Assembly (NCBI GenBank): GCA_963674785.1
Contig: OY771555.1
Coordinates: 32,001 to 96,000 of the forward strand
DNA from: Caldisericia bacterium
GTDB lineage: Bacteria; Caldisericota; Caldisericia; JAAYUI01
DNA length: 64,000 bases
Reading direction: 5' to 3'
Shown in pieces: positions 3 to 48,485 of this stretch. Made by a program: the position numbers and the translations under genes. Below the pieces are notes generated by a model. That model was not told the origin of the DNA. It saw only the letters and a program-made list of their open reading frames with translations, and did no database searches. Within the stretch, counting starts at the first letter, position 1, and the number at the start of each line of letters is the position of its first letter.

Positions 3-1718
3 CCACCAAAGATAGCATTTTCAAGAATAAAATCAATCTGTGAACAAGAAATCAAGCCACCACCAACAGTATCATCAGTTATGAACTATCCAGTAAAAAC
101 AGTTACACCAAACGAAACATTCAAAATCGCCAAAGAAAAATTGAAACGATTTGGTCATGGTGGATTACCAGTAGTCAATAATGGAAAACTCATTGGAATT
201 GTCACAAGACTAGACCTAGATAAGGTGCCTTCCTACATGGAGGATAAACCTGTAAAAAGGTTCATGTCTCCAAGTCCTTCAACAATCGAGGCAAACGCAT
301 CGATAGTTGAAGCAAGACGAATGATGATGAAAAAGGGCGTTGGAAGGCTACCGGTGATGGAGAAAGAAAAACTTGTTGGAATCATCACCAGAACAGATGT
401 TCTATCTGCAGATTTCTGGCATAGAGGTCAGGACATAGGTCCATATCCTCTCCCTACAAAACTCGATACAAATCAAACAAAAGAGCTTTATTCCGGACTG
501 CCGGAAAAATACAAAAACATCCTCAATGAAATCCGTGAGATAGCATTTGGCCTTTCAGTTTCAACATATCTTGTTGGAGGAGCAGTCAGAGATATTGTTC
601 TGTCAAAAAATCCTGATGATTTAGATATTTTAGTTGAGGGAGATGCGATCAACCTCGCCCAGGCAGTATCAAGGAAGCTTAACGGAAAACTCATCGCTCA
701 TACAAGGTTTGGCACAGCACAGCTTCACCTCCCAAACTTAAAAATTGACTTTGCATCTGCAAGAGCTGAGTACTACAAAGAACCCGGGCTACATCCAAAC
801 GTTGTCCACACATCAATCTATGAGGATTTAAAAAGAAGGGACTTCACAATAAATTCCCTGGCGCTCGGACTGACAGGAGATGATGCCTGGAAAATAATTG
901 ATATTTGTGGAGGGCTTGATGACATTAACCGAAAAGAAATTCGGATTCTGCACAATCTCTCATTTGTTGAAGATCCTACAAGGATTTTAAGGGCAGTCTA
1001 CTATGCCACAAATCTCGGTTTTGAAATTGAAAAAAATACAGAGAGATACGCAAAAGAAGCAATTAGCACAGGACTACTTTCAACCGCAAAAAATGAAAGA
1101 ACCGCTCAAGAACTACTCCGAATCCTTTCACACAAAAATGGGACTGAGATGCTTATCAAACTTAAGACTCTTAAGGGAATCCAAAAAATATTCGACAGAA
1201 TCCCACAGTACTTCTCAAGCCTATTGAATCGAATCGAAAAGATTTATAGGTATTCACTTGAGTTAGGCTTAAAACCTGATCTTGCGAAGCTTAGATTGCT
1301 AGCTCTCACAAAAGAGATGGACGAAACGCATGTTGTTGACGTCTTAACAAGATTAAGAATCCCAAAGAGAATAACCGACCAAACAAAAATAAGCATGGTA
1401 AATGCAACATATCTGAAAAAGGCAATCGCATCTGGTGACAGAATTGAGATTTTCGAGTATATGAAGAATGAGTCTGATGAGACCATTGTTTTTTCTTGTC
1501 TGACATCCAGGCTTCAATCAAGCTTGAATCTTCTTTCGAGGTTGGTTAGAATCAGGGAAGTGAGATTAGAAATCAGTGGAGACGATCTGATCAACATGGG
1601 GCTAAAATCTGGAAAGATGATTGGTTCTGTTTTGGATGTCGTACATAAAGAAAAAATTGCAGGAAGGGTGCACGGAAGGATAGAGGAATTATCCATGGCA
1701 AAAAGGCTTATTAAATGA
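3..1718 (+). CDS. CBS-domain-containing tRNA nucleotidyltransferase (CCA- or A-adding, class II); 5' end lies outside the window
   Basis: Frame is open from nt 3. Tandem CBS pair (LPVVNNGKLIGIVTRLD; LPVMEKEKLVGIITRTD), then nucleotidyltransferase motifs VGGAVRD..DDLDILVEGD, RRDFTINSLA and SFVEDPTRILRA. Confidence 0.9.
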   Translation, partial: PPKIAFSRIKSICEQEIKPPPTVSSVMNYPVKTVTPNETFKIAKEKLKRFGHGGLPVVNNGKLIGIVTRLDLDKVPSYMEDKPVKRFMSPSPSTIEANASIVEARRMMMKKGVGRLPVMEKEKLVGIITRTDVLSADFWHRGQDIGPYPLPTKLDTNQTKELYSGLPEKYKNILNEIREIAFGLSVSTYLVGGAVRDIVLSKNPDDLDILVEGDAINLAQAVSRKLNGKLIAHTRFGTAQLHLPNLKIDFASARAEYYKEPGLHPNVVHTSIYEDLKRRDFTINSLALGLTGDDAWKIIDICGGLDDINRKEIRILHNLSFVEDPTRILRAVYYATNLGFEIEKNTERYAKEAISTGLLSTAKNERTAQELLRILSHKNGTEMLIKLKTLKGIQKIFDRIPQYFSSLLNRIEKIYRYSLELGLKPDLAKLRLLALTKEMDETHVVDVLTRLRIPKRITDQTKISMVNATYLKKAIASGDRIEIFEYMKNESDETIVFSCLTSRLQSSLNLLSRLVRIREVRLEISGDDLINMGLKSGKMIGSVLDVVHKEKIAGRVHGRIEELSMAKRLIK

Positions 1719-2401
1719 GTATTTTCTCGACAATCTTCACTTGGATTGTCTACATTCTTTTGTATCTCGTGTCAATCCATATTCCAAGCTTTGTCAAAGC
1801 AAATCTTGCTTATCATTTATTCGGCGATTCGACTCCAAAGGTAAACGGAAGGATGACCTGGTGGAATCCAATCCCAAATCTCGACTGGATCGGCACTTTA
1901 TCAATATTCTTCCTTTATGTTTCTTGGGCGAAACCGATGGATGTTAGCTGGAATAATCTTAAAAATCCAAAACTGACAAACACATATACAGAACTGGCTG
2001 ACTGTTTTACAAGCTTTGCATTAGGGATGATTGCCTGTTTATTTCATCTGGTACTCTCAAAACTCCAACTTGCTCTGAATCTTGACCTTAGATTCCTGAT
2101 GACTCTCATAGACATGTTCGCATCATTCAATATTTTTCTGTTCCTACTTAAACTACTCCCCCTTCCACAATTTCCCGGATTCAGAATCCTAACTGGCCTT
2201 TTCTACCACAAGCCTCAGGGAGTCTTTGATTCACTCTCATTGACACTCATGGGGACTGTAATTTTGATAATTCTTTTGATATGGACACCACTTCCTCAGT
2301 TTCTGGGGCAGATAACTAGCTCAATCCTGAAACCATTCGCAGTTTCGAGTTCAACATATCTGCAGTGGTTGGACAAAATCCCTGGAATCGGAGGACTATA
2401 A
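1715..2401 (+). CDS. Site-2 protease (M50) family membrane protein with degenerate catalytic motifs
   Basis: AYHLFGDSTPKVNGRMTWWNPIPNLDWIGT and SWAKPM match the M50 scaffold; several TM segments; usual position before trpS-scpAB. HExxH and the LDG Asp are absent. Confidence 0.75.
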   Translation: MSIFSTIFTWIVYILLYLVSIHIPSFVKANLAYHLFGDSTPKVNGRMTWWNPIPNLDWIGTLSIFFLYVSWAKPMDVSWNNLKNPKLTNTYTELADCFTSFALGMIACLFHLVLSKLQLALNLDLRFLMTLIDMFASFNIFLFLLKLLPLPQFPGFRILTGLFYHKPQGVFDSLSLTLMGTVILIILLIWTPLPQFLGQITSSILKPFAVSSSTYLQWLDKIPGIGGL

Positions 2402-2407
2402 CTCATC

Positions 2408-3391
2408 ATGCCAAGAATAGTTTCTGGAATGCGATCTACTGGACAAATGCATATTGCTCATTACTTATCGGTATTAAAATCATACAAAGAGATGCAGGAG
2501 AAAAATGACTGTTATTTCTTTTTTGCAGACCTTCATGTTTTGACAACAGGTGCTGAAAAAACAGCAGAAATCAAGAACAATACTCTTCAACTTGCTGTCG
2601 ATTGGCTCTCATCTGGAATCGATCCTGAAAAGGCAACCGTCTTTATTCAGTCACAGGTTCCAGGACACTACCAGCTTTACCTACTTCTTTCGATGATTAC
2701 CCCAAAAGGATGGCTTGAAAGAAACCCAACCGTGAAGGATATGATCAGAGACTATAACCTACAGGATAGTGTTGGTCATGGTCTTCTTGGTTATCCAGTT
2801 CTTCAGGCATCAGATATCCTTCTTTACAAAGGTGAAATGGTTCCAATTGGAAAAGACCAGAGACCTCACCTTGAGATAACAAGAGAGATTGCAAGAAGAT
2901 TCAATGGAATCTTTGGTGAAACTTTCCCAGAACCAAAGGAGTACTTAAGAGAGTATCCACTAATTAAGGGAACCGATGGTCAGAAGATGAGCAAAAGTCT
3001 GGATAATGCAATCTATCTATCAGATGATGAAAAAACAATTGGAAAGAAAGTTTCAAGAATGGTAACAGACCCCGAAAAGATCAGACGTGATGACCCAGGT
3101 CATCCAGAGGTTTGCTCAGTTTATGAGTTCCATTCAGTCATTGGTGATCCAGAAAAAGAGGCAAGAACAACAGATTGCAAATCAGGTGATTTGGGCTGCG
3201 TTACATGCAAAAAAGGGTTATCTGCAAAACTCAATGATATCATTGCCCCAATAAGGGAAAAGCGGGAAGCACTCCTTGAAAAACCAGCCAATGTTTGGGA
3301 AATACTCGCTGAGGGTAACAAAAAAGCAAATATCACCGCAAAAGAAGTCTGGGGTGAAATTGAGGAAAAAGTTGGACTCAAATACTACTGA
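2408..3391 (+). CDS. trpS: Tryptophan--tRNA ligase
   Basis: SGMRSTGQMHIAHY (HIGH motif), FADLH, YPVLQASDIL, VPIGKDQRPHLE, KMSKS. Confidence 0.97.
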   Translation: MPRIVSGMRSTGQMHIAHYLSVLKSYKEMQEKNDCYFFFADLHVLTTGAEKTAEIKNNTLQLAVDWLSSGIDPEKATVFIQSQVPGHYQLYLLLSMITPKGWLERNPTVKDMIRDYNLQDSVGHGLLGYPVLQASDILLYKGEMVPIGKDQRPHLEITREIARRFNGIFGETFPEPKEYLREYPLIKGTDGQKMSKSLDNAIYLSDDEKTIGKKVSRMVTDPEKIRRDDPGHPEVCSVYEFHSVIGDPEKEARTTDCKSGDLGCVTCKKGLSAKLNDIIAPIREKREALLEKPANVWEILAEGNKKANITAKEVWGEIEEKVGLKYY

Positions 3392-4124
3392 TCAAAAAAA
3401 GAACGAGATAATAAAAACTTCATCTGCTCATCTTGGAACAGTCAACCCAGATTCTCTTGCCCAAATTGCAAGATTTGCTCGAAGCGGTAAAATTTCTCCC
3501 TACAGAATCAAGCTTCATGCAATCAGTGGAAAACTGAATTCAGTGATTATTGATAGCGATGAAATCTCACCAGTTCATCTCGAATCAATGGTTAGAGTAT
3601 CAGACTTATTACTCATGAAAGCGGAATTTGTTGCAAATGGTGGAAGTTTTCCAGTTCGTGAGAAGAAATCTGTTTTTGATGAAAATGAAGACAAAAAGCT
3701 TGAGGATAATTTCCAAACACTCAAGATGCTCACAAACCTTATTGAAAGAAATCTTCATGAGATCTCTGCAAGTTACCCAAGACCCAACCCACCAATTCTA
3801 GTAAAAGATGAACTCAAGATGCCAAATTCCAAAAGGCTACTTAAGATCATCGAAAAAATGATGGGTACCGAGGAAGCAAAAGAAAAAGGCGAAAGTATGC
3901 TGGTCGTCAGGAGAAAAACACTTGACATCAAATCAGCAATGAGAGAAATATTAGAAAGATTGAAAGAAGGGGTTCAAGTCCTTTTTGATATGTTGATTAA
4001 ACCTGGAGCAACAAGATTTGACGTAATTGCATCACTTCTTGCACTTCTCGAACTTGTAAAAAGAAGACAGGTCGACATCTATCAAAATGACGTATTTGGT
4101 CCCATATTGATTGAAAAAAGATGA
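3372..4124 (+). CDS. scpA: Segregation/condensation protein A (kleisin), divergent
   Basis: C-terminal VIASLLALLELVKRRQVDIYQNDVFGPILI is the ScpA winged-helix signature; lies directly before scpB. Start placed at TTG 3372 after GAGG (ORF track starts at 3276). Confidence 0.8.
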   Translation: MDSNTTDQKKNEIIKTSSAHLGTVNPDSLAQIARFARSGKISPYRIKLHAISGKLNSVIIDSDEISPVHLESMVRVSDLLLMKAEFVANGGSFPVREKKSVFDENEDKKLEDNFQTLKMLTNLIERNLHEISASYPRPNPPILVKDELKMPNSKRLLKIIEKMMGTEEAKEKGESMLVVRRKTLDIKSAMREILERLKEGVQVLFDMLIKPGATRFDVIASLLALLELVKRRQVDIYQNDVFGPILIEKR

Positions 4125-4777
4125 ATCTAGAAAATGCAATTGAAGCGGTTTTGTTCGTATCGCCAAAACCATTAACATTCCATAGAATAGCCAAACTCGT
4201 TGAGTGTAATCCCCATGAAGTCACAGAAACTCTCAACATCCTCGCTGAAAAATTTATCGACAGGGGAATTGTGCTGAGAGTTAAAGACAACAAAGCTCAG
4301 CTCCTCTCGCATCCTGATTTTGAGGAGATGGTAAAACCCCTCAGAACACATGTTGCAAACCGAAGAATGACAAAAGCTGCTGTCGAGACACTTGCAATCA
4401 TAACGTCAAAAGGTGAGGCAACAAAAGCAGAGGTAACTAAATATCGTGGTTCAGTCTCAGATAACACAATCGATGGACTTGTTGCCAAAGGACTTCTTGA
4501 AAGATTTGAAAAACCAACAGCGGGAAAACGTGTTCTTGTCTACTTTAAAGTAACAGAGAAATTTAGGAAAATGGCTGGTCTGACGGATGTTACAGAACTA
4601 AAAACAAAGTTTGCATCACTTGTTGATGAACCTGCTGACCTTTTTTCAGAGTTTGACAAACAGCTTGAAAATGATGAATCAGAGGAAATGGAAGAGCTCG
4701 AGTTATCAGATGAAAACGAGGAAGATTCAGATTTTGAATGCAACCAAATAAGTTCGTTGGAAGAAGAAACTGAGTAG
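4121..4777 (+). CDS. scpB: Segregation/condensation protein B
   Basis: IEAVLFVSPKPL, AAVETLAII, TKAEV..YRG, YFKVTEKF; acidic C-terminal tail. Confidence 0.92.
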   Translation: MNLENAIEAVLFVSPKPLTFHRIAKLVECNPHEVTETLNILAEKFIDRGIVLRVKDNKAQLLSHPDFEEMVKPLRTHVANRRMTKAAVETLAIITSKGEATKAEVTKYRGSVSDNTIDGLVAKGLLERFEKPTAGKRVLVYFKVTEKFRKMAGLTDVTELKTKFASLVDEPADLFSEFDKQLENDESEEMEELELSDENEEDSDFECNQISSLEEETE

Positions 4778-4866
4778 GTTTTATCACAATTTTTTTGATT
4801 TAAACGTATAAAAATTATCCAACATAGCGGAAAACCATACACATTAATTCACGTATTTAATCGTTT

Positions 4867-4906
4867 TTGCATTTGCCAGACACCCTCCATAAAATGAACA
4901 TGGAGG
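4867..4906 (+). promoter_or_regulatory. Putative sigma70 promoter and SD for the GNAT operon
   Basis: TTGCAT (4867-4872), 17-nt spacer, TAAAAT (4890-4895); GGAGG at 4902-4906 before ATG 4912. Confidence 0.55.
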
Positions 4907-4911
4907 ATATG

Positions 4912-5976
4912 ATGGATAAGAGAGTAATGCTCAATAAATACACCATTTTTGAAATAAATCGACAGAACATGAGTGATTCTGAAATAAATGATATATACAC
5001 CTCTTCTCTTGAGGAATGGAGAGAGGAAAACCCAATGTTTCCAAAACCAGCTTTTGAAGAAGTAAAAAGTGATTTCCTCAAAACTGATGATTCATATGTT
5101 GATTTAGATTTTCTCATCAAAGATAATAGCAATCTTGTTGCAACTGCTTCGGTCTTTTTACATAACCCAAACTCAGACGCCCCGTCTGAAAAAAAGGAAA
5201 AGGCATGGGTCAGAATGAGAGTTTTCCCTGACCACAGAAACAAAGGGATAGGTACTGAGATTTTAAAATTTCTGATAAATAAAACCAAACAGTACCCCTT
5301 AAGAAGCTTTTCAGCAGCAACCGGTCTTGAACCAGGATATAGATTCTGCGAGAAGTTTGGAGGAGATGTTATAAAAAAATCCGTAGAAAGCTACTTGGAT
5401 TTAGAAAAAGTTGATGTCACAAAGATTGAAAAGTTAAGCTCTGAAATCACCACAAAAAACCAAGACGTGAAAATAGAAACAGTCGACAATCTAACAATTG
5501 GTGGCGTCGAAGAATATATAAGGTTGTTTGCCGAGTTTGATGAAGAAACCTCAAAATACAATAAGGATGCAAATTTTGATAAAGATTCCTGCATAGAAAA
5601 TGGAATTAAATCTGCAAAAAAAGACATCTCAATTGGTTACAAAAAAACTGTCACATATGTAAGGGATTCGAATGGAAGAGCTGTAGGAATGTCAACTTTC
5701 CTAATTACCCCCGAATCAAAAGAAATCGCTCAACAACTCATGACTGGAGTACTAAAAGATTATCGAAGAAGAGGCTTGTGTAGGTTACTCAAATCAAGAT
5801 CAATAATCAGACTGAAAGAGTTATATCCAAATATCAAATTAATCAAGACCGTAAATGACGAAGAAAATTCATCGATGAGGAAAATCAATGAGAGTCTTGG
5901 TTTCCAGCAATTGCCGGTTTACAAGGCATACACATTTGAGTTGAATAAACTCAAAGAAAGATTACAAATAAAATGA
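4912..5976 (+). CDS. Double-domain GNAT N-acetyltransferase, copy 1 of 6
   Basis: Two acetyl-CoA motif-A segments (HRNKGIGTEIL; TGVLKDYRRRGLC) and C-terminal TVNDEENSSMRKINESLGF. Confidence 0.88.
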   Translation: MDKRVMLNKYTIFEINRQNMSDSEINDIYTSSLEEWREENPMFPKPAFEEVKSDFLKTDDSYVDLDFLIKDNSNLVATASVFLHNPNSDAPSEKKEKAWVRMRVFPDHRNKGIGTEILKFLINKTKQYPLRSFSAATGLEPGYRFCEKFGGDVIKKSVESYLDLEKVDVTKIEKLSSEITTKNQDVKIETVDNLTIGGVEEYIRLFAEFDEETSKYNKDANFDKDSCIENGIKSAKKDISIGYKKTVTYVRDSNGRAVGMSTFLITPESKEIAQQLMTGVLKDYRRRGLCRLLKSRSIIRLKELYPNIKLIKTVNDEENSSMRKINESLGFQQLPVYKAYTFELNKLKERLQIK

Positions 5977-7043
5977 AGATATTGAATAAATACACACTTA
6001 CAGAAATTGATTACAAAAATCCAACTGAAAAAGAACTGAATGAGATATTCAACTTTTACATTGAGCAATGGAATGAGGAGAATCCAGGGCTTCCTGACCC
6101 AACTTTTGAAAAATTCAAATATGATTTTAAATATTCAAGAGAAAACGAACAAAAATATAAATTTCTCTTGCATGATGCAAATGGGAAACTAATTGCGAGA
6201 TCAGAAATAAAGCTTCTTAAGCATGACTGTGACGCCCCGCAAGCTAAAAAAGATGATGCATCATTTAAAATCAGAATAGATGAGAAGTTCAGAAGAAAAG
6301 GTGTTGTAAGAGAACTCCTTTTAAGCTCGATAAACAAAATCCAAGGTTTAGGTATCAAAAAAATTAACACATACTCTAACCTTGAATCAGGTCAGTCATT
6401 TTGTGAAAAGCTAGATGGAAAGATTACTGCAAGAGGATTTATAAGTTATCTTGATATTGAAAAAAATGATTGGAAAAAAACTCAGAAACTCTTTGATGAA
6501 ATCAAATCAAAGAATCCAGATATTAGAGTTGAGACACACCTTGAGCTAAAAGAAGAGGACATTCCAGGATTTGTTAAAATTGATACAGTTTTCATGGAAG
6601 AAATCTCAAAATACTCAGAAGAAAGCAATTTTGACAAGGACTTTACCATAAGAGAATCAACAAAGTATATCAAAGAAGGGCTCAAAAAGGGACAAAAACA
6701 CATATATACATATTTAAGGAACCGAAATGATGAGATAATTGGACTTTCCGACCTCATAATTGACCCTAAAAGCCCTCTCAGAATCTTTCAAGGTATGACC
6801 GGAATAACGAAAGATTATCGAGGAAGAGGTTTAGCAAAACTGGTAAAAGCAGGCACTCTTCTCAGGCTCAAGGATAATCATATACCTGGATCGGTTATCA
6901 CAACATACAATGACGAAGATAATACTGTGATGAGAAAGATAAATGAGAGTATTGGATTTAAATCTATTCCGATTTGGAAAAAATATACTTTCGGATTACA
7001 AGAACTAAGGGAGAAGTTACGTGAAAGAACGCAAGATGAATGA
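5973..7043 (+). CDS. Double-domain GNAT N-acetyltransferase, copy 2 of 6
   Basis: FRRKGVV; TGITKDYRGRGLA; TYNDEDNTVMRKINESIGF; ATGA overlap with copy 1. Confidence 0.88.
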   Translation: MKILNKYTLTEIDYKNPTEKELNEIFNFYIEQWNEENPGLPDPTFEKFKYDFKYSRENEQKYKFLLHDANGKLIARSEIKLLKHDCDAPQAKKDDASFKIRIDEKFRRKGVVRELLLSSINKIQGLGIKKINTYSNLESGQSFCEKLDGKITARGFISYLDIEKNDWKKTQKLFDEIKSKNPDIRVETHLELKEEDIPGFVKIDTVFMEEISKYSEESNFDKDFTIRESTKYIKEGLKKGQKHIYTYLRNRNDEIIGLSDLIIDPKSPLRIFQGMTGITKDYRGRGLAKLVKAGTLLRLKDNHIPGSVITTYNDEDNTVMRKINESIGFKSIPIWKKYTFGLQELREKLRERTQDE

Positions 7044-8091
7044 TGGTTACCAGATAATTGAAATTGATAATAACAAGGTCTCTGAAAATGAATTGCTGGA
7101 TATATATGAGTTTTCTCTTGATAGATGGAGAGAATCGTATCAGATGCTTCCCAAACCAACATTTGAATCTTTCAGCTACCATTTCAAAAAGAAGTATCCG
7201 AATGAAATTGACCACAACTACATAATCAAAAACCATGATGCCAGGATTATTGGGAGTGCGTGTCTTTCATTATCGAAACCTGAGTCAGAAGAACCCGAAT
7301 CGATTAAGAAAATCGCAGGTATTCAGTTGAGGATCACCAAATTTGAGCGAGGAAAAGGGATTGGAACTGAGGCACTAAAAGTAATCCTTGAAAAGACAAA
7401 AAATAGTGGAATAGAGAAAGTAAGTATGAATGCAACACTTGATTGTGGTCACAAGTTTTGTCTTCATCTTGGTGGAAAGGTCGCTGATACCAGCTATCTA
7501 AACTATCTCGGTCTCAAAAACACAAATTGGACAGAGATTCAAGAGATTAACCAAAACACAAAAAACAAAAATAGTGAAATCACACTTGAAACTTTCACAA
7601 AATTGAATCAATCAAACACTGAAGAATACATAAGACAGAATGCAAAATATGTAAAGGAGATATCCAAGTATTCTGATGACTGGGAATTTGATGAAGATTA
7701 TTATATAAATGAATCTAGGGAAAATATTAGGAATTGTATCCAAAGGGGAGTAAAAGGAGTTTTCACATACGCCCGAGACCCAAGTCAAAGAATCATCGGA
7801 ATATCCGTTGTAAAATGTGACCCATTGGAGCCTCAGGAAGTATACACAGTTATTACTGGTGTCGATAAAGACTTTAGAAGAAGGGGGCTATGTAAACTCA
7901 TGAAAACTGAGCTTCTTCTCTATATAAAGAAAAATCGCCCGGAGTATTCTGTTATGACAACGGCAAATAATGAAGAAAATACAGTCATGCGAAGAATAAA
8001 CGAAGAGCTTGGGTTTAAGCAGCTTCCTGTTTGGAAAAGATATTCGTTTGATCTTAACAAACTGAAAGAACAATTAAATGAAAATCTATAA
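7036..8091 (+). CDS. Double-domain GNAT N-acetyltransferase, copy 3 of 6
   Basis: ERGKGIGTEAL; TGVDKDFRRRGLC; TANNEENTVMRRINEELGF. Confidence 0.88.
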   Translation: MNDGYQIIEIDNNKVSENELLDIYEFSLDRWRESYQMLPKPTFESFSYHFKKKYPNEIDHNYIIKNHDARIIGSACLSLSKPESEEPESIKKIAGIQLRITKFERGKGIGTEALKVILEKTKNSGIEKVSMNATLDCGHKFCLHLGGKVADTSYLNYLGLKNTNWTEIQEINQNTKNKNSEITLETFTKLNQSNTEEYIRQNAKYVKEISKYSDDWEFDEDYYINESRENIRNCIQRGVKGVFTYARDPSQRIIGISVVKCDPLEPQEVYTVITGVDKDFRRRGLCKLMKTELLLYIKKNRPEYSVMTTANNEENTVMRRINEELGFKQLPVWKRYSFDLNKLKEQLNENL

Positions 8092-9139
8092 GATACCAGA
8101 TGGATTCAAGATAATTGAGTTGAATAACGAGAATATAACCGAAAACGAGTTAGCTGAATTGTTTGAGCTTTCACTTGATAAATGGCGAGAATCATATCAT
8201 ATGCTTCCAAAACCAACATTTGAGTACTTCAAATATCAATTCAAAAAGAAGTATCCTTTCTATAAGATTTTCAATTTTGTAATCAAAAATAATCAAAATG
8301 AGGTAATTGGAAGTTCATATATAAGAATTACTCCACCCGACTCAGATGCACCAGATTCCGAAAAGAAACGTGCAAATGCAATGATTCGATTAAAGAAAAA
8401 GTATCGAAGGAGGGGTATCGGAAAAGCATGTCTTTTAAAACTCTTAGAAACGATTGATGGACTTGGTATTGAAAAAATAACTATGGGCACACCTGTTGAT
8501 TGCGGACAAAAATTTTGTCAACATTTCGGTGGAGAAATAACTGATAAAAGCGTTACCAACTATTTAGATTTGAAAACTGCAAACTGGTCAGAAATTCAAA
8601 GAATTAACTCAAACATAAAGGATGATAACGACGGAATTTCTTTAGAAATTATTGACAAACTAACTGAAGGAAACATTGAAGAATACATCAGACAAACCGC
8701 AAAGTATTTAAAGGAAGTCTCAGAGTATTCAAACGATTGGGAATTTGATGAGGATTTCTTTATCAAAGAATCTAGAATAAATATTCCAGACAGCATAAAA
8801 GGGGGGGTTAAAAGGATTATCACCTATGCATGGTCTGAACAAAAAATTGTTGGCATATCAGTTTTGAGAAGCGATCCATTTGAACCAAAAGAGGTCTATA
8901 CAGTTATTTCTGGAGTAGATAAGAATCAGCGGAAAAGAGGAATTTGCAAGCTCATGAAAACTGAACTGCTTCTTCATGTCAAGAAAAATTATCCAGAGCA
9001 CTCTGTTGTGACCACTTCAAACGATGAAGAAAATTCAGCCATAAGAACAACAAACAAGAGGCTTGGATTCAAAGAGTTACCAGTTTGGAAAGCATATTCC
9101 TTCAAAATAGAAAACCTGAAATCTAGATTAGAGGAATAA
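8078..9139 (+). CDS. Double-domain GNAT N-acetyltransferase, copy 4 of 6
   Basis: YRRRGIGKACL; SGVDKNQRKRGIC; TSNDEENSAIRTTNKRLGF. Confidence 0.88.
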   Translation: MKIYKIPDGFKIIELNNENITENELAELFELSLDKWRESYHMLPKPTFEYFKYQFKKKYPFYKIFNFVIKNNQNEVIGSSYIRITPPDSDAPDSEKKRANAMIRLKKKYRRRGIGKACLLKLLETIDGLGIEKITMGTPVDCGQKFCQHFGGEITDKSVTNYLDLKTANWSEIQRINSNIKDDNDGISLEIIDKLTEGNIEEYIRQTAKYLKEVSEYSNDWEFDEDFFIKESRINIPDSIKGGVKRIITYAWSEQKIVGISVLRSDPFEPKEVYTVISGVDKNQRKRGICKLMKTELLLHVKKNYPEHSVVTTSNDEENSAIRTTNKRLGFKELPVWKAYSFKIENLKSRLEE

Positions 9140-9141
9140 GA

Positions 9142-10206
9142 ATGGACAAAACTAAACTCATTAAAGACTTTAATATCTATGAAATTGACACAAGCAATAT
9201 CCCTGAAAAGGACATGGAGAGTCTTTATAAAATAGCTCTGGAGAAATGGGGAGAAGAGCACCCAGAGCTAATGAAGCCAACCTTTTCTGAGGTAAAACGA
9301 GAACACCGAGATAGTATTCCGTCTGATATCATTAATAAATTCATTGTTAGAGACAATGAAAACAATGGGTTCATTGGTTACGCAACACTGGGATATATCA
9401 AAAGAGATGTTGATGCACCTGAAGAAGAAAAGGATAAAGCATGGGTTGGGATAAGGATTAGAAAGGAATACAGGAGAAGAGGGATTGGAACGGATGTTTT
9501 AAAATTGCTCACGCTCAGAGTATCAAATCTAAACATCAAAAAGATAACCTCTGGTGCAAGAACAAAATCGGGAAAATCATTCTCCGAAAAGTTCGGCGGA
9601 GAATTATCTAGCCGAAGTTATTATAGCTTTCTAAACCTCAAAAAATGTAACTGGAAAAGAATTGAGGAAATAAATTTCGAAAATAAAAGCAAAAACAGCG
9701 ACATAAAGCTCAAAACCTTTTTCGGAATCAATGACAAAAACTTTGATAACCATTTCACAAAAATCGCTGAGTATATGGAGGAAGTATCAGAATACTCGAC
9801 AGATTGGGATTTCGATAAAGATTTCTTTCTCAGAGAAGTTATTCCCGAGGAGAAAAAAGCAAAAGAGCGTGGTGTAAAAAAACTCTACGTTTATGCATAC
9901 CAAAATGAGAAAATAATTGGTGTATCGGAGCTCAGAATCGAACCAGAAAATTCTAAGGAAATCTACACCGAAATAACTGGGATTGACAGAGATTTCAGGG
10001 GTCGAGGTTTGTGCAAGCTACTGAAAACAGAATTATTACTCAAAATCAAAAAAGATTTCCCCGATATAGAACTGATAACAACTGGAAATGATGAAGATAA
10101 TTCTGCGATAAGAAAAGTTAATAAGGAATTTGGATTCAAACAACTTGAAATTTCCAAAGGATATATATTTGATGTAGATAATCTGAAGAAAAGACTTGGA
10201 TTATGA
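9142..10206 (+). CDS. Double-domain GNAT N-acetyltransferase, copy 5 of 6
   Basis: YRRRGIGTDVL; TGIDRDFRGRGLC; TGNDEDNSAIRKVNKEFGF. Confidence 0.88.
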   Translation: MDKTKLIKDFNIYEIDTSNIPEKDMESLYKIALEKWGEEHPELMKPTFSEVKREHRDSIPSDIINKFIVRDNENNGFIGYATLGYIKRDVDAPEEEKDKAWVGIRIRKEYRRRGIGTDVLKLLTLRVSNLNIKKITSGARTKSGKSFSEKFGGELSSRSYYSFLNLKKCNWKRIEEINFENKSKNSDIKLKTFFGINDKNFDNHFTKIAEYMEEVSEYSTDWDFDKDFFLREVIPEEKKAKERGVKKLYVYAYQNEKIIGVSELRIEPENSKEIYTEITGIDRDFRGRGLCKLLKTELLLKIKKDFPDIELITTGNDEDNSAIRKVNKEFGFKQLEISKGYIFDVDNLKKRLGL

Positions 10207-11270
10207 TTGAAAAGGAAAAGATATTAGATAAATACAGAATTTATGAGGTTGATTTCAAAAATATCTCAGACGGAGACATGAACGATATTTATGGTTTAAC
10301 GTTGGAAAGATGGGAAGAATCATACTTCATGTTACCAAAACCAACATTTGAGAATGAAAAACATGAATACACTCACAATCATCCATCAGATATCGCCTCA
10401 AAATATATCATCAGAGACAATACAGGTGAATTGGTCGCAGCAACAACAATTTCGAGAATAAAGCCTGAGATTGATGCTCCTGAGGATGAAAAAAACCGCG
10501 GATGGATATCAATCTCGGTGAGGAAGGAATTCCGAAGAGTCGGTGTGGGAACTGAAACACTCAAATTTTTGACAGGGTATGCACATGAAAAAAACCTCAA
10601 AAAGCTCCAGGTTTTTACGAGTATGGATGAAGGTGTAAAATTCTGTGAAAGGTTCAAAGGTGAGATAACTGGAAGAAGTTACTTCAATTACCTAGACTTC
10701 AGAAACCTGGATACAAAGAAATTCCAAAGAATAATGGATGTCATCCAGAAAGAAAATCCAGGTATTTCAATATCTACATCAGTTAGTTTGAAGGACTCAG
10801 ATAGAGAAAAATACCTAAAACTATTATGTGAGTTTGCAGAGGATATTTCTATCTATTCCCCTGAATGGAACTACGATGAAAAATTCTTTTTGGAGATGAC
10901 CCTCGAAAATGAGCAAGTAGAAAAAGAAAAAGGAATTGCAAGACTGTTCTCACACGCCAGAACAGAAAATGGTGAAATCATAGGGATGTCAGAGCTTCAC
11001 TACAATCCCAAAAAACCAAAAGAGATTTATACTGAGATTACTGGAGTTACAAAAGATTACAGAAAAAGAGGGATTGCGAAGCTTCTAAAAATCAAGCTTT
11101 TCTTGTTTGCAAAAGAAATGTATCCAGATATAGAAATTTTACTCACTGAAAATGACGAGGGGAACTCAAACATGAGGAAGATCAATCATGATTTTGGATT
11201 CAAAAACATGCCAATCCAGACTGAGTATACATTTAAAATCGATACTCTAAAAAAGCTCTTTGATGATTAG
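10203..11270 (+). CDS. Double-domain GNAT N-acetyltransferase, copy 6 of 6
   Basis: FRRVGVGTETL; TGVTKDYRKRGIA; TENDEGNSNMRKINHDFGF. Confidence 0.88.
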   Translation: MIEKEKILDKYRIYEVDFKNISDGDMNDIYGLTLERWEESYFMLPKPTFENEKHEYTHNHPSDIASKYIIRDNTGELVAATTISRIKPEIDAPEDEKNRGWISISVRKEFRRVGVGTETLKFLTGYAHEKNLKKLQVFTSMDEGVKFCERFKGEITGRSYFNYLDFRNLDTKKFQRIMDVIQKENPGISISTSVSLKDSDREKYLKLLCEFAEDISIYSPEWNYDEKFFLEMTLENEQVEKEKGIARLFSHARTENGEIIGMSELHYNPKKPKEIYTEITGVTKDYRKRGIAKLLKIKLFLFAKEMYPDIEILLTENDEGNSNMRKINHDFGFKNMPIQTEYTFKIDTLKKLFDD

Positions 11271-11494
11271 AGCTTATCTTCAGGTTCTTTATCCAATCGA
11301 ATTATGCCTTTTGGGTTGACACCTTCCTCAGAAGGAAAACTATCAAGCATCAAGGATTTTGTTATTACACGGTCTCTTTTTGGATGAATCGGATTCTTAT
11401 TCAGATCATCCTTGCTCAACTCTCTGTCGGTTCCAAGGACTTCTTTGAGTCGAAGTTTTGCTCTTATTGCAGATTCGTTATCTTGTTTGGGCAT
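11267..11494 (-). CDS. MinE-like small protein (only the MinD-contact helix is recognisable)
   Basis: Directly downstream of minD. SAIRAKLRLKEVLGTDR matches the MinE S/A-x-x-A-K-E-R-L-x-x-x-L-x-x-D-R motif; the rest is not MinE-like. Confidence 0.6.
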   Translation of the reverse strand: MPKQDNESAIRAKLRLKEVLGTDRELSKDDLNKNPIHPKRDRVITKSLMLDSFPSEEGVNPKGIIRLDKEPEDKL

Positions 11495-12341: not shown

Positions 12342-12938
12342 TCAAATATGTGGTCTTGCAACAAACCCAATTTTTCTTTCTGGGTTATGTTTGTTTTCCA
12401 TCATCCCACGAACAACCTTTATTATCGACCTTATTGCTTGTTCATGTAAATCAATCTGATCCTTAAGTTTGAAGAAATCAGCAGAATTAGAATCATAGCT
12501 CGAGATTGCCTTTCTAAATCTCACAAATGCCCTTACGACATATATACTCACTTCAATTGCCCTTTTTGTATTTAAAACACTTGCAGTCATAACCACACCA
12601 TGTTCTGTAAAAACATTGGGCATTGATGATGAATACTTTAATCCATTTAGCTGGTCGCAGTTTGCGACCAGTTCACCTTTCTCTTCTTTTGTAAGTTGAA
12701 ACATAAAATCCCTTGGAAAACGGGAGATGTTTCTTTTTATTTGCTCATTTAGTCTCTTTGTTTTAACTCCATAAAGCTTCGCAAGATCAGAATCAACAAT
12801 CACCTTTTTCCCTCTGATATCTTTAATGAGATAATCAATGTTGAGCAAATCATCTTCCGATAATCCATAAAATAAATCTGGTAACATTTCGCTTGATTTA
12901 GCTGAACAGTCTTCGAGTTGGCCCATTTCTTTTTCCAT
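12342..12938 (-). CDS. ORF6N (KilA-N-like) DNA-binding domain protein
   Basis: IRGKKVIVDSDLAKLYGVKTKRLNEQIKRNISRFPRDFMFQLT..PNVFTEHGVVM..VRAFV; C-terminal RKIGF; GGAGG before ATG 12938. Confidence 0.9.
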   Translation of the reverse strand: MEKEMGQLEDCSAKSSEMLPDLFYGLSEDDLLNIDYLIKDIRGKKVIVDSDLAKLYGVKTKRLNEQIKRNISRFPRDFMFQLTKEEKGELVANCDQLNGLKYSSSMPNVFTEHGVVMTASVLNTKRAIEVSIYVVRAFVRFRKAISSYDSNSADFFKLKDQIDLHEQAIRSIIKVVRGMMENKHNPERKIGFVARPHI

Positions 12939-13140
12939 GCATCCTCCGAAAATGTCGTTTTGTTTCAATTTGTGCATCAAAACGTAATAAATATAACTCG
13001 TATAACCATCCAAATATCTGAGTCAAAGAAAATAATATGTCGAAAAATATTGGTAAATGTCGAATAAAATGCCTATGTATCTTTCATTTTTCACAAGTTT
13101 GTATATAATGTTGCTACAATGAAGAAAGGGGATAGAAAAA

Positions 13141-39643: not shown

Positions 39644-39719
39644 TGGAGCGGGAGACGGGGCTCGAACCCGCTACCCCCAGCTTGGAAGGCTAGTGCTCTA
39701 CCAAATGAGCTACTCCCGC
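39644..39719 (-). tRNA. tRNA-Gly (anticodon TCC), CCA encoded
   Basis: Reverse complement GCGGGAGTAGCTCATTTGGTAGAGCACTAGCCTTCCAAGCTGGGGGTAGCGGGTTCGAGCCCCGTCTCCCGCTCCA, 76 nt; acceptor stem GCGGGAG/CTCCCGC, T-loop GGTTCGA. Confidence 0.97.
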
Positions 39720-44040: not shown

Positions 44041-44118
44041 GATAGAGTCACCAAAAACAAACAAAAGCATCTTCATTGTGTCAAATCCTGTACCCGATTT
44101 TGGGAGAAAGGAATCGTG

Positions 44119-45746
44119 ATGGGATTTAAAGGCTTTGCCAAGTCTATAGCTTTTGTTCTTGGATGTTTGATGTTTGTTTCGATAATCGGTTGTGGGAATA
44201 GTTATGTCTACTCACCAACTCCTGACACGTACAGATGGGTAACCATTAATGGAGAGGATTACAACCCGAACTTGGATACAAATGCACCTATGTTTGAGGA
44301 GGGGAAAACACCTGATATTATCAGTGATTTTGTTTTTAAAGGTGATACAATTTACTTTCTTATAAGAGAGGAAAACTCAAACAAATTCATCAGATGTGTA
44401 AAGTATATCGATGGAAAGATACTCAATCTTGATGATACAAAATGGAAATCGAGTCCAACAAAACTATTTTTGTCACCTTTCAATGAAGCAAATGAACCAA
44501 GTTCATTTGCAATCGATTCAAATGGTTTTCCGCACATTGTATGGTCAGATAAACCTGAATATATAAAGACTTTGGATCACAACAAGGATATCTACTATGC
44601 GAAATGGGATGGACAAGATTGGTACACTATCCAAGGTCAAAAAGTAAACATAGAATCTGATAATGCAAATGTTTCAAGAAATGTTGAGATTTGCTCAACA
44701 TATTCGCCAAGAATTGCACTAGGTTCAAAAGATAATCCCCATATTGTTTGGCGTTCGCATAACCGTGAAAATCAATCTGAAGAATATATATATCTAAACT
44801 ATCTGAAATGGGGTGGTAAAAACTGGTTAACTTCCGATGGCACCCAATACAAACCACGAAGCAACTCAGACTCAATCGTTGGGAGATTCAGCAATGCTGA
44901 AATAAGTGGTGATTATTTTTCCACATTCCCCATCATTAAGATGGATAAAGATGATAATCCTCACATTTTTGGAACTACAAAAATACAGGTAAGACAGAAG
45001 ATATTGAATACGAGTTTTATGAGAAAATGTATATCAAGTGGACAGATGAGGACGGTTGGGTTTTCAATAATGGGAACCTCTGGGATCCAACTATTCGATT
45101 TCTGAATCTCAATAACAATATCCAATCATTATTTATAACATCAGATTTTTCAATTGACAGTCATGGAGATACTTATCTTGCTTGGCTAGGTTTTTTTGAT
45201 GAGTACCCATCATTTGGCATATTTATAATCAAGAATGTCGATGGTGAATGGAGAACTTTGAATGGTGAAAAATGGGACTCCGCCAATCCAAAGAACGCAC
45301 TTGTTGAATCGTTAGGACTTTATTCTGCTGATAGATATTCACTCAAATCATGTGATATTCAGATAAGCGTTGATAGAAATAACAATCTACATTTACTTCT
45401 TAGTAATGGTGAAAGCTCGAATAGAAATATTCAACAATTAGAAAACCCATGTTTGTATTATTTCAAATCTGATGGTGAAAACTGGTATTCAATCGATGGG
45501 CAAACAAATGAATCAAACATGAAGGATTTTGGCTTGATACACAGAGGCTCAATAGAAAAGGGGATGCTACAATCATACCTACTTCTAGATGATCAATATA
45601 ATCCCCATATCATATGGAGGGGAACCAGCATTAAGGAGCTAGATAATTTTAATTATATAAAAGCAATTAAGCATACTAATAACTGGAACCCAATACACCC
45701 CAAAAAAAGCATTTGCAAAAAACAGTTATTCCTGCTATCTTGGTAA
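44119..45746 (+). pseudogene. Frameshifted lipoprotein with repeated (N)PHIxW..Y.KW.G..W beta-propeller-like units
   Basis: Lipobox IIGC. The two overlapping ORFs (44116-45105, 45027-45746) share the same repeat. One extra T in the T5 run at 44966-44970 fuses them and restores NPHIFW. Confidence 0.7.
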
Positions 45747-45767
45747 TTGGGATAGGAGGGGTATGTT

Positions 45768-46277
45768 ATGAAGATCAGTATCTTTGAACATATGAAAAGA
45801 TGTAGGATTTGTGGGGAGAAGTCTAGCTACACTGTTTGTCAAAATTATGCATCGGAAACAGAGCTTCAACTCATGAGGGAGATTGAGTCAATCAACAAGA
45901 AGATTTCGGAAAATACTAAGAGACTTTTTAAGTGTAAGCTTAAATTACCAAAACTAAATCCGTATTTTATCATGGCATTTTTGCTTCTATGGTTATTCTT
46001 CACACACTCGTTCCTTTTTGCGAAATTCGTCCATGAGCCAATTGTAATGATTTTTATTGCAGCATTGTCAATTCTATTTTTGATTTTTTCAGTCTATTTC
46101 TGGATTTTCTTTCCGATGGACAACATCAAAAACGGTGTCGAGTTCATGGACGCAAAACATCAAAATCTCATCCTCAAAAGACACAGAAAATACTACCTAA
46201 AGATGCTCAAAAAAACACCTGAGAGCTGGACAAAACTCGACCTAATGAAGATAAAGTTTGAGACACTTGAGGCTTAG
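45768..46277 (+). CDS. 2-TM membrane protein with N-terminal degenerate Zn-ribbon, paralogue A
   Basis: CRICGEKSSYTVCQNY, coiled coil, two TM segments, LKKTPESWT. Confidence 0.65.
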   Translation: MKISIFEHMKRCRICGEKSSYTVCQNYASETELQLMREIESINKKISENTKRLFKCKLKLPKLNPYFIMAFLLLWLFFTHSFLFAKFVHEPIVMIFIAALSILFLIFSVYFWIFFPMDNIKNGVEFMDAKHQNLILKRHRKYYLKMLKKTPESWTKLDLMKIKFETLEA

Positions 46278-46283
46278 GGGAGG

Positions 46284-46796
46284 ATGAACATGAAGTGTAG
46301 AAAATGTAATGAACAATCACCGTTTCCAGTTTGCCCAGAGTGTGCAAACGATCAGGAACTTGAAATAATAGAAACAATTGTCAAAATCGATGAAACCATA
46401 AGGGTCGACCGTGATCGAAAAAAGGTTCTGTTCGAGTATGTGTTCCCACTAACAAAACCAATGATCATTGCATTTATTCTCTTCGCATTAAGCATCATTA
46501 CTTCGAATTATCTAAACTCAGCCATTCTTCCAATTGTTTCAATGGTTTTAGCTGTTTCACTTTTTATTTACTCTTGGATAATCCATCTTCCGCTCAAGTC
46601 TGAAGCGATTGAAGACTACAGAGACATGAAAATCAGAATTGACCAACTCAAAAAAAGGAAAGAGTTTTTGCTTGATCTTCTAAAGAACTCGCCTGAAAAA
46701 TGGTCGGAAGCTGAGCTTCAGGTTGTCAGAAGTAACATTTTTGCAGACGGTGAGGGAGGATATGATTATGATCCGATCGAGGTTTATTTGAGGTAG
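46284..46796 (+). CDS. 2-TM membrane protein with N-terminal CxxC..CxxC Zn-ribbon, paralogue B
   Basis: CRKCNEQSPFPVCPEC, two TM segments, LKNSPEKWS; GGGAGG SD. Confidence 0.7.
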   Translation: MNMKCRKCNEQSPFPVCPECANDQELEIIETIVKIDETIRVDRDRKKVLFEYVFPLTKPMIIAFILFALSIITSNYLNSAILPIVSMVLAVSLFIYSWIIHLPLKSEAIEDYRDMKIRIDQLKKRKEFLLDLLKNSPEKWSEAELQVVRSNIFADGEGGYDYDPIEVYLR

Positions 46797-46805
46797 CTGA
46801 AGAAT

Positions 46806-48485
46806 CTATTCAGTTTTTTTCGCTATTTCTGTCAGCAATCCTTTCGAAATATCAAACTCATAATCATAAAACTTCTCGATTACCTTATCTCCTGGTATGA
46901 TCATTTTCGCATGAATAAGGATTATGTCTTTATCATCGGTATAATCCCATTCAGTGATATAGTAATTATCCCTAAATGGTGTGGTTATCTCATAATACGG
47001 CTCATCAACCCCTGGTTTGAAAAGTCTGAATCTGTTATCTGGCATAAACGGCATACAGAGGATTCCATGTTTGCTGAAGCAATAGAAATCAGGGAAGAAG
47101 TGTTTTCTACAGTCGCCCGATAATTGATACATCGCTTGGATATAGTAGCTGTACGGCTCAAACATCTCTGATTTCATGTTATAAATATCGATCCTATGGT
47201 GATATTCACCATTTCGAATCTCTGGAATCAAATGATATCTGAAATCACCAATCTCCTGATAGCTCATGACATCATCGGTTTTCATTTTCCAAATGTACTT
47301 GAACGTTTTCACATCAAAAGCTTCCAAGTAACCACCGTGCATGTAAATCATTACTCCATTATCTCTAATACTTGGAACCCGCCCATTACCGGCACCCATA
47401 TTTTCTTCAAACTCATAAATTATTTTGTCTCTTGTGATATCAACCAAATACGCTTTGTAACCAGTGATAACAAGCAAAATATCATCGAGAATATCTTTAA
47501 ATGCAAATTCAATACTACTGCCCAAATCTCCATTGAAATTATGAAGACTGATGACAAAGAACTCTGATTCGCCAGTTTCAATATTGAATTTATCTATCTC
47601 GCATTTTTTCCCGGTATTGAATTTATCAGGTTCATAATCAATCACTTTCATGAAATAAAATAGATTTCCCCGTGAAAGCGTTGTGAAAAATTCCCGACTG
47701 GAAAGCCCTTCAAGTGAAAACTCTTTCACAACTTTCCAATCACTTGTCTTGATAAATGTCATTTTTTGAACAGGTGACTTCCAACTCATGAAAATAAAAA
47801 AGTGGTCACTAAAACCGTAAAGCTTCCCATACTCCCCAGGGACATCACAAACAATTTTTCCATTCCTCACATCTACAATCTGTTTAAACCCATTTTCATG
47901 AGAATTCCCCAAAAGGATATAGTTCTCCCTGATTTTTCTAGAATATATCTTATCACTTGATTTCACTTCCTCATCAACTTCAATCTCCCATTTGACAGAG
48001 CAATCATCAAGATAATAAGCAACCAACTTTTTATCATCATTGTCTACTTCAACCAAAAAAGGTCTTTTGTCCCAGAAAAGCATTCCGGCATCTTCACAAA
48101 AATTGTAGTCTGTTCTTTTTCCGTCAAAACCAATATGAACAATGATTCTGTTACCCTCATCATCAATCGGATATTTTGAGAAAACCACACCATCTTCAAC
48201 AATCATTGGTGACCAATAATTATTCTGCTCGCTTAATTTTGGTAATTCACAATCAAGAAGAATTTCCGCTGTTTCTGCATCCCGCAAGTGAAATCTGCCC
48301 TTATCGAGAATGTAGAATGATAGATATGGGTCGTGAGAAGAAAGGTTATCACCGGCAGGTGAGGGATAATAAAACTCCGATACCCCTTTTTGAAATTTCC
48401 ATCTGCCCTCTTTTGCCCTGCTGACCCCAGCCACACCAAGTAGAAGCACCATCACCAGAAATATTGCAATATATCTTCTTTTCAT
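46806..48485 (-). CDS. Secreted beta-propeller-like (PQQ-type repeat) hypothetical protein
   Basis: Signal peptide; repeated x-D-x-x-T/N-G-x-x-x-W blade-like motifs (LRDAETAEIL, IVDVRNGKIV, AFDVKTFKYIW). Confidence 0.6.
   Translation of the reverse strand: MKRRYIAIFLVMVLLLGVAGVSRAKEGRWKFQKGVSEFYYPSPAGDNLSSHDPYLSFYILDKGRFHLRDAETAEILLDCELPKLSEQNNYWSPMIVEDGVVFSKYPIDDEGNRIIVHIGFDGKRTDYNFCEDAGMLFWDKRPFLVEVDNDDKKLVAYYLDDCSVKWEIEVDEEVKSSDKIYSRKIRENYILLGNSHENGFKQIVDVRNGKIVCDVPGEYGKLYGFSDHFFIFMSWKSPVQKMTFIKTSDWKVVKEFSLEGLSSREFFTTLSRGNLFYFMKVIDYEPDKFNTGKKCEIDKFNIETGESEFFVISLHNFNGDLGSSIEFAFKDILDDILLVITGYKAYLVDITRDKIIYEFEENMGAGNGRVPSIRDNGVMIYMHGGYLEAFDVKTFKYIWKMKTDDVMSYQEIGDFRYHLIPEIRNGEYHHRIDIYNMKSEMFEPYSYYIQAMYQLSGDCRKHFFPDFYCFSKHGILCMPFMPDNRFRLFKPGVDEPYYEITTPFRDNYYITEWDYTDDKDIILIHAKMIIPGDKVIEKFYDYEFDISKGLLTEIAKKTE

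Follow-up and report, generated by a model that had tools for sequence, protein, structure and literature searches.

The window analysed here, a 64,000-nucleotide stretch of a Caldisericia bacterium (assembly GCA_963674785.1, contig OY771555.1, positions 32,001 to 96,000 of the forward strand), carries six intact genes in tandem on the + strand between scpB and minD (4912-11270), each encoding a two-domain GNAT (GCN5-related N-acetyltransferase) protein of 351-356 residues. The copies, g1 to g6, share the fold of Orf14 from the clavulanic acid cluster, are constrained, and differ in number from those at the same junction in a related genome. At a probability of about 0.55, we read them as a birth-and-death array of acyl-CoA (coenzyme A) N-acyltransferases of diverged specificity, with one active C-terminal domain each, serving detoxification or house-cleaning. 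This reading would add to the observed array catalysis, a single active domain per chain, divergence of the pockets, co-transcription and a substrate class.

Array layout and upstream region

Array organisation: An earlier account of this DNA, the sequence-only reading, described six intact, co-oriented and coupled paralogues of about 355 residues, and the coordinates of the open reading frames (ORFs), their junctions and the Pfam matches confirm it. From g1 to g6 the junctions are -4, -8, -14, +2 and -4 nt, all six copies lie above the cut-off for Pfam Acetyltransf_1, and a scan of the window for family members revealed no seventh copy. Pairwise protein identity is 34-41%, rising to 55% between g3 and g4, the youngest pair; a 154-residue fragment of another source (P0016) is 66% identical to g4. 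The array is compared below with L001, a locus from a bacterial metagenome-assembled genome (MAG), which also aligns with the region upstream of g1. The features are as follows.

4802-4911 (+): conserved upstream non-coding block, aligned with L001; putative promoter function
4912-5976 (+): g1, tandem GNAT, 354 residues; sister to g2; family Gln276 retained
5973-7043 (+): g2, tandem GNAT, 356 residues; N-domain motif A degenerate (RRKGVV)
7021-8091 (+): g3, tandem GNAT, 356 residues from GTG 7021, 351 residues from ATG 7036
8078-9139 (+): g4, tandem GNAT, 353 residues; closest to g3
9142-10206 (+): g5, tandem GNAT, 354 residues; modelled with a pLDDT of 95.5
10203-11270 (+): g6, tandem GNAT, 355 residues; Glu at position 315

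The GTG start of g3 is preceded by GGGAG. Only g6 is acidic, with an isoelectric point of 5.7, compared with 8.0-8.9 for the other five. Three of the five shared motifs given by the sequence-only reading fit all six copies as written; the first and fourth fit none as written, and all six once given one extra wildcard. The copies have a lower GC content (33-35%) than eight neighbouring genes (40-43%), but GC at third codon positions is similar (0.29-0.36 versus 0.32-0.41), so a recent foreign origin is not clearly signalled.

Transcription: The 134-nt gap before g1 (4778-4911) aligns with L001 at a local score of 39 (shuffled sequences 21.0 +/- 3.4, with 2 of 1000 as high), and this conservation persists despite saturation at synonymous sites between the two genomes. 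The conserved block begins with AAACGTATAA (4802-4811), continues with TTATCCAA and reaches TTTGCATTTG.CAG (4864-4879), the part best aligned with L001 upstream of g1. The promoter proposed previously, TTGCAT-17-TAAAAT, is present in its letters inside this block, as a candidate -35 box (4867-4872) and -10 box (4890-4895) followed by a Shine-Dalgarno sequence, GGAGGA (4902-4907); position 4867 is also the first base of the longest mechanical ORF at g1. As a consensus match, however, it does no better than chance: promoter-like sites number 23 between 3000 and 12500, versus 30.2 +/- 6.0 in shuffles, and the scan scored this spot only as TTTGCA-18-TAAAAT, at 9/12. A transcript starting ~7 nt past the -10 box would begin at the Shine-Dalgarno sequence. 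A search for intrinsic terminators on the + strand came up empty both in the scpB-g1 gap and behind g6; with none after scpB, read-through from trpS-scpA-scpB is possible. A single transcript across the array is likely.

Family, fold and candidate active site

Family identity: Profile searches and structure models place the copies among the tandem GNATs of the Orf14/Cbg type. A profile of the six sequences has Orf14 as its best solved relative (E 8e-8), and a 137-sequence profile, made of the six copies and 131 of 145 non-window matches (fragments and one fusion excluded), matches Orf14 (PDB 2WPX) at E 2e-27, the next structure following at 1.5e-12. AlphaFold models represent g1 and g5, while g2, g3, g4 and g6 were placed by full-length alignment. 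The g1 model (pLDDT 90.3) has Orf14 as its best Foldseek match (TM 0.69), with VipF ranked second; the g5 model is again closest to Orf14 by VIA-align (Z 28.5, rmsd 2.8 over 307 residues), ahead of MAB_4324 (Z 24.8) and then 3TT2, GlmA, MshD and VipF (Z 20-24). The sequence-only reading was right that these are "double-GNAT" proteins in having two domains, but it did not recognise the structurally solved type to which they belong. Because only the C-terminal domain is thought to be catalytic in the Orf14/Cbg type, "double" probably still means one active site per chain.

Clustered at 50% identity, the family comprises 4005 clusters at E up to 0.001 and 958 at 1e-10; look-alikes in the atlas are clusters of Heimdallarchaeota, Actinomycetota, Chloroflexota and Deinococcota with generic names. 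Longer fused forms were not found among 8000 candidates, which is weak evidence; one homologue, P0114, is a 680-residue fusion of a P-loop kinase domain to a full family member. NCBIfam has no family near its cut-off for g1 (best member E 2e-8), none of the six copies matches the PADLOC models (2023 library) at E 0.01, and the phage collection holds no match with g5.

Several more specific identities were rejected. Mycothiol synthase MshD (TIGR03448) scores 18.6 bits with g1 against a cut-off of 163.1 (best member E 9e-4). RimI (TIGR01575) scores 19 bits against 86.4 (best member E 2e-8), and the copies have two domains. An Orf14 orthologue of the clavulanic acid pathway is not indicated by flanks that hold trpS, scpAB and minD and no clavam cluster. 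GNAT toxins of the TacAT/AtaRT type are single-domain proteins whose genes directly follow a small antitoxin gene; the copies have two domains and no small genes between them. An NpuN-like acyltransferase of ribosomally synthesised and post-translationally modified peptides (RiPPs) would need company that is missing: no precursor, maturation or export gene occurs among the flanking ORFs of at least 80 residues, and the array leaves no room inside.

Active-site residues: We judged conservation against 126 outside homologues, using g5 numbering. Seventy-seven columns are at least 60% conserved in those homologues, and 32 of them are retained in at least five of the six copies, whereas 45 are not. 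Retained in all six are R286, G289, K295, T314, N316, N320, N327 and G331. The CoA-binding elements survive in both domains (R111 and G114 in the N-domain; R286, R288, G289 and K295 in the C-domain): C-domain motif A and the T-x-N-x3-N-x6-N-x3-GF motif are found in all six copies, and the N-domain R-x-x-G-x-G in every copy but g2. The last residue of motif A is Cys or Ala in place of the family Gly, and the family Pro322 is lost. In Orf14, according to excerpts of a review, acetyl-CoA is buried in the N-domain and the C-domain is proposed to be catalytic (PMC8788787); by analogy, the copies may hold a structural acetyl-CoA in the N-domain and a second acyl-CoA in the C-domain.

The losses appear to fall on the other side of the putative cleft. 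R163, P216, T229, P230, R234 and W293 are lost in all or five of the six copies and Q276 in four (g3-g6), while many of the remaining losses at family-conserved columns are conservative. The wider-family set R163, P216, T229-P230-E231, R234, E237, Q276 and W293 has given way to other residues in most or all copies, and for the larger part in L001 and L003, a Caldisericia MAG, too; trees join the copies of the window with those of L001 and L003 in a divergent subclade (support 98/89 and 100/99). The lost residues would map to the swapped strand, the first two C-domain helices and the fourth strand, that is, the acceptor side. Identity among the copies falls to 25% in helix 226-242, compared with 59-60% in the CoA motifs; position 315 is V, Y, A, S, G or E; and positions 263, 276-278 and 315 sort the copies into the types g1, g2, g3/g4, g5 and g6. 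Segment 205-242 is acidic, with 9-12 Asp or Glu against 3-7 Lys or Arg. Column comparison thus bears out the expectation that the acyl-CoA segments of motif A are kept while candidate acceptor-side residues vary.

History of the scpB-minD junction and its flanks

Copy-number change: The genome scan used one pattern, RG[RKQ]GL[CG]K[WR][LM]K, across 185,579 species genomes, and 80 of 203 confirmed stretches were kept, representing 58 genomes, with at least 1.3 kb on both sides in 57 of the 80 loci. None of the six genes of the window fits this pattern itself, so close relatives are under-sampled. L001 reads nucleotidyltransferase, membrane protein, trpS, scpA, scpB, three GNATs, a small ORF, minD and an Ig-domain protein, and its middle GNAT (L001 11077-12137) is broken in two by a frameshift close to a homopolymer, which could mean either a pseudogene or an assembly error. 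The phylogeny and copy number called for at this junction therefore give a variable array, with six copies in the window and three in L001. In the 21 kb of L003 there is just one copy, flanked by a miaA-like region and fixABCX, and the Fix proteins of L003 are 80-91% identical to those of the window, in keeping with a Caldisericia origin of the window.

Co-oriented adjacent copies occur in 3 of the 80 loci, three in L001 and one pair each in L002 and L009, and one further locus has a divergent pair; in the other 76, a second full-length copy was not seen. No array in the 80 loci is longer than that of the window. The pairs in L002 (8902-11059) and L009 (8887-11047) are orthologous and belong to two Heimdallarchaeota genomes. 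Two to five copies, mostly dispersed, are found in 16 of the 58 genomes, and all eight plasmid matches inspected (of 23) are single copies in unrelated contexts. Across the 80 loci (13 of 30 neighbour clusters annotated), no functionally related family of neighbours recurs from lineage to lineage; the neighbours that recur in 5-12 genomes (an ABC transporter, UPRTase, an exonuclease, a hydrolase and methyltransferases) are mostly archaeal synteny blocks on mixed strands.

Three lines of evidence make separate expansion of the window and L001 arrays the most likely history. Six flanking orthologues are 65-89% identical (dN, nonsynonymous divergence, 0.10-0.28), whereas the best cross-genome GNAT pair has 40% identity and a dN of about 0.6. 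The six window copies form one clade in trees of 52 and 18 rows (bootstrap/SH-aLRT 90/98 and 91/96), and approximately unbiased tests reject all four groupings of L001a with subsets of the window copies (p 0.005-0.010). A composition artefact was considered, and the clade survives four-state recoding with lower support (72/91) and also stands under LG (74/97); two columns are exclusive to the six copies, the highest number for any of 3003 six-row subsets. After expansion, the copies most likely outpaced their neighbours in divergence by a factor of two to six. Possible alternatives to separate expansions are sorting from an ancestral array with more copies and the replacement of a block.

Selection and age: The copies are old and not homogenised, since the best ungapped DNA repeat between them is just 100 nt at 78%; no long near-identical tract indicates recent gene conversion. 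The proportion of nonsynonymous differences (pN 0.26-0.44) is below that of synonymous differences (pS 0.64-0.78) in all 15 copy pairs, which runs counter to the neutral evolution that the sequence-only reading had named as a possible refutation. Codon models give an omega of 0.04-0.07 overall and 0.03-0.11 in all seven partitions, the candidate pocket included; with synonymous sites saturated and models fitted by partition only, these values are rough. Judged by these substitution patterns, neutral evolution is excluded and every copy is under purifying selection.

Flanking genes: The two flanks are given below. The claim that no biosynthetic, regulator or transport gene accompanies the array holds for the flanking ORFs and their Pfam matches.

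81-4777 (+): left flank, CBS/CCA-type nucleotidyltransferase (cut by the window start), membrane protein, trpS, scpA and scpB, in the same order as in L001
11267-12298 (-): right flank, convergent, 75-residue ORF and minD; the ORF overlaps the g6 stop by 4 nt

The 75-residue ORF behind minD (11267-11494, -) has by eye a MinE-like N-terminus and no Pfam or NCBIfam match; its identity to the L001 orthologue is low, about 40%, compared with 89% for MinD. No terminator was found where it converges on g6. The 228-residue membrane protein (1715-2401, +) resembles a site-2 (M50) protease by eye, but HExxH is missing and neither Pfam nor NCBIfam matches it; its L001 orthologue (73% identity) likewise lacks HExxH, and the protein is possibly a conserved pseudo-protease. 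ScpA (3276-4124, +) is divergent: it scores below the Pfam and NCBIfam cut-offs, with only its C-terminal part matching, and has 69% identity in L001. A gene with an ORF6N domain (12342-13013, -) lies between minD and the Ig-domain gene and is missing at that site in L001.

Cumulative GC skew peaks at ~11000, the right end of the array, and falls through the rest of the window; this peak may follow gene direction only, and a dif-like pattern has no match, so it is not established as a terminus. An Rfam search over the window yields a single tRNA (39647-39719). Within 44116-48485 (+), two adjacent small membrane proteins of similar size (45768-46277 and 46284-46796), both starting with CxxC, look like another tandem duplication.

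Function and relation to known systems

Proposed role: By analogy with characterised tandem GNATs, each chain would be cytoplasmic, with CoA held structurally by the N-domain, and the C-domain would use acyl-CoA to acylate an amine at the interdomain cleft. The sequences suggest that the copies are retained because their acceptor pockets, and perhaps their acyl-donor pockets, have diverged, which would provide four to six specificities (g1, g2, g3/g4, g5, g6). Co-translated from one mRNA that may start upstream of g1 or run on from trpS-scpA-scpB, they would act as a stand-alone panel against small molecules or peptides that carry amines, with duplication and loss renewing the panel at a tolerated site that ends a housekeeping operon. 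A stand-alone role in detoxification or house-cleaning seems most likely because no pathway genes adjoin the array.

Several results weigh against this account. The candidate pocket partitions show no sign of positive selection in the codon models, several N-domain strands are as variable (21-25%) as the candidate acceptor helix, and the mapping to the acceptor side comes from GNAT topology and a DSSP listing rather than from coordinates. In VipF the C-domain alone is catalytic, through Asp251 and Tyr263, according to the portions available of PMC10936415; helix 318-332 contains no Tyr in any copy and has Asn327 instead, and position 315 is paired with the VipF dyad by spacing, not by superposition. 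Five copies are basic overall, which leaves segment 205-242 as the sole hint of a cationic substrate. Support for the six-copy clade does not attain the starred level, and for Orf14 itself the 2021 review, as far as its excerpts go, states that a role in N-acylglycylclavaminate formation is not reported (PMC8788787).

Alternative explanations: The best placed of the alternatives, though unlikely, is dosage or loose redundancy, in which six promiscuous enzymes of overlapping activity are kept for total output and their differences are tolerated drift. An omega far below 1 throughout with no elevation in the pocket partition, divergence that runs over the whole chain, and the frameshifted L001 copy, which suggests that copies can be lost, all speak for it. 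Arrays kept for dosage, however, tend to be young or homogenised; in this one synonymous sites have reached saturation, the longest repeat is short and imperfect, and radical changes at family-conserved positions differ from copy to copy. Neutral or decaying duplication draws on the same frameshift, which could be an assembly error, and is practically negligible: six open frames of ~355 codons, saturated synonymous sites, the 15 pairwise comparisons and the overall omega refute it for the long-term history. The copies could instead acylate lysines or N-termini of different proteins or peptides. VipF, the second-ranked fold for g1, acts on eIF3-K lysines, NpuN acts on a RiPP lysine, to which it attaches long acyl chains (excerpts of PMC13060382), and the acidic cleft segment would suit such targets. 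The idea is nonetheless improbable, more so than dosage: genes for a precursor peptide, a synthetase or an exporter are absent from the flanks, family members in L001 and L003 have different neighbours, RimI scores far under its cut-off, and fast turnover sits poorly with conserved protein targets.

The sequence-only reading also offered combinatorial hetero-oligomers with subunits made stoichiometrically from the coupled operon. All five junctions do overlap or lie 2 nt apart, an orthologous adjacent pair is retained in two Heimdallarchaeota genomes, and Orf14 reportedly exists in a monomer-dimer equilibrium; but the flanking housekeeping genes are tightly spaced too, copy number and identity differ between the window and L001, L003 makes do with one copy, and in 76 of the 80 loci the DNA covered contains no further full-length copy. 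As an obligate feature this is very unlikely. A complex prediction for g5 with g6 scored 0.00 in two runs and bears neither way. We give equally little credence to the copies being GNAT-fold proteins that bind, sense or hydrolyse acyl-CoA. They lack the canonical acid/base dyad, their best-conserved residues form the CoA site, and no reaction for Orf14 is reported in the excerpts of PMC8788787. On the other side, no regulator is fused or adjacent, the invariant T314/N316/N320/N327 resembles a constrained active site, and the kinase-fused homologue P0114 suggests small-molecule modification. Many active GNATs, moreover, lack the Tyr.

A bolder version of the acyltransferase panel would make the scpB-minD junction a standing diversification site, at which repeated amplification and rebuilding of pockets supply each lineage with its own panel against amine-bearing antibiotics, peptides and toxins of its rivals, much like an immunity-gene array for chemistry, with an active site that does without the usual Tyr/Asp dyad and possibly uses varied acyl donors. 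We regard this as doubtful, somewhat less probable than dosage and a little more probable than protein acylation. If it were true, the six proteins would be a natural specificity series revealing the reaction of the whole Orf14 family.

Significance: Orf14, needed for clavulanic acid production, is the only solved family member found, and six natural variants of one scaffold with different candidate pockets would be an inexpensive set with which to test specificity for donors and acceptors. The locus also offers a clean example, in a prokaryote, of what appears to be recurrent tandem expansion at one fixed position. Neither tandem arrays of paralogues nor GNATs in several copies are unusual in themselves, and the finding is curious rather than startling unless the substrates are antagonist molecules. 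The enzyme type is already known; new with respect to the open full-text literature are the subclade with a seemingly remodelled acceptor side and its growth in place to three and six copies. Searches of that literature brought up no account of such an array, most subscription papers lying outside their reach; PMC12219266 and PMC6478378, as excerpted, provide context only.

Comparison with known systems: Orf14 (Cbg) of Streptomyces clavuligerus (PDB 2WPW/2WPX) shares with the copies the full-length tandem GNAT fold, a similar length and the C-terminal T-x-N...N..M..(I/V)N..GF motif, in which Asn replaces the usual Tyr. It differs in its 17% identity and in being a single gene within a biosynthetic cluster, whereas the copies lack several wider-family residues and form a six-copy array among housekeeping genes. 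MAB_4324c of Mycobacterium abscessus (PDB 7Q3A), second-best fold for g5, has a stand-alone drug-modifying activity, a mild acetylation of amikacin (excerpts of PMC10727445), which is the kind of role proposed for the array; it is nevertheless only 16% identical, absent among the 60 profile matches listed, and a single gene under WhiB7 control. VipF of Legionella, MshD, GlmA of Clostridium acetobutylicum and Sphaerobacter 3TT2 also have the tandem GNAT fold, but at 12-17% identity, with Asp251 and Tyr263 of VipF unmatched in the copies and with no secretion or pathway context around the array. The uncharacterised Orf14-like GNATs of Heimdallarchaeota/Thorarchaeota, Methanomassiliicoccales, Chloroflexota, Deinococcus and Streptomyces belong to the same family at 22-31% identity; their copies are mostly dispersed, with a longest co-oriented run of two (L002 and L009), in contrast to the six consecutive copies of the window.

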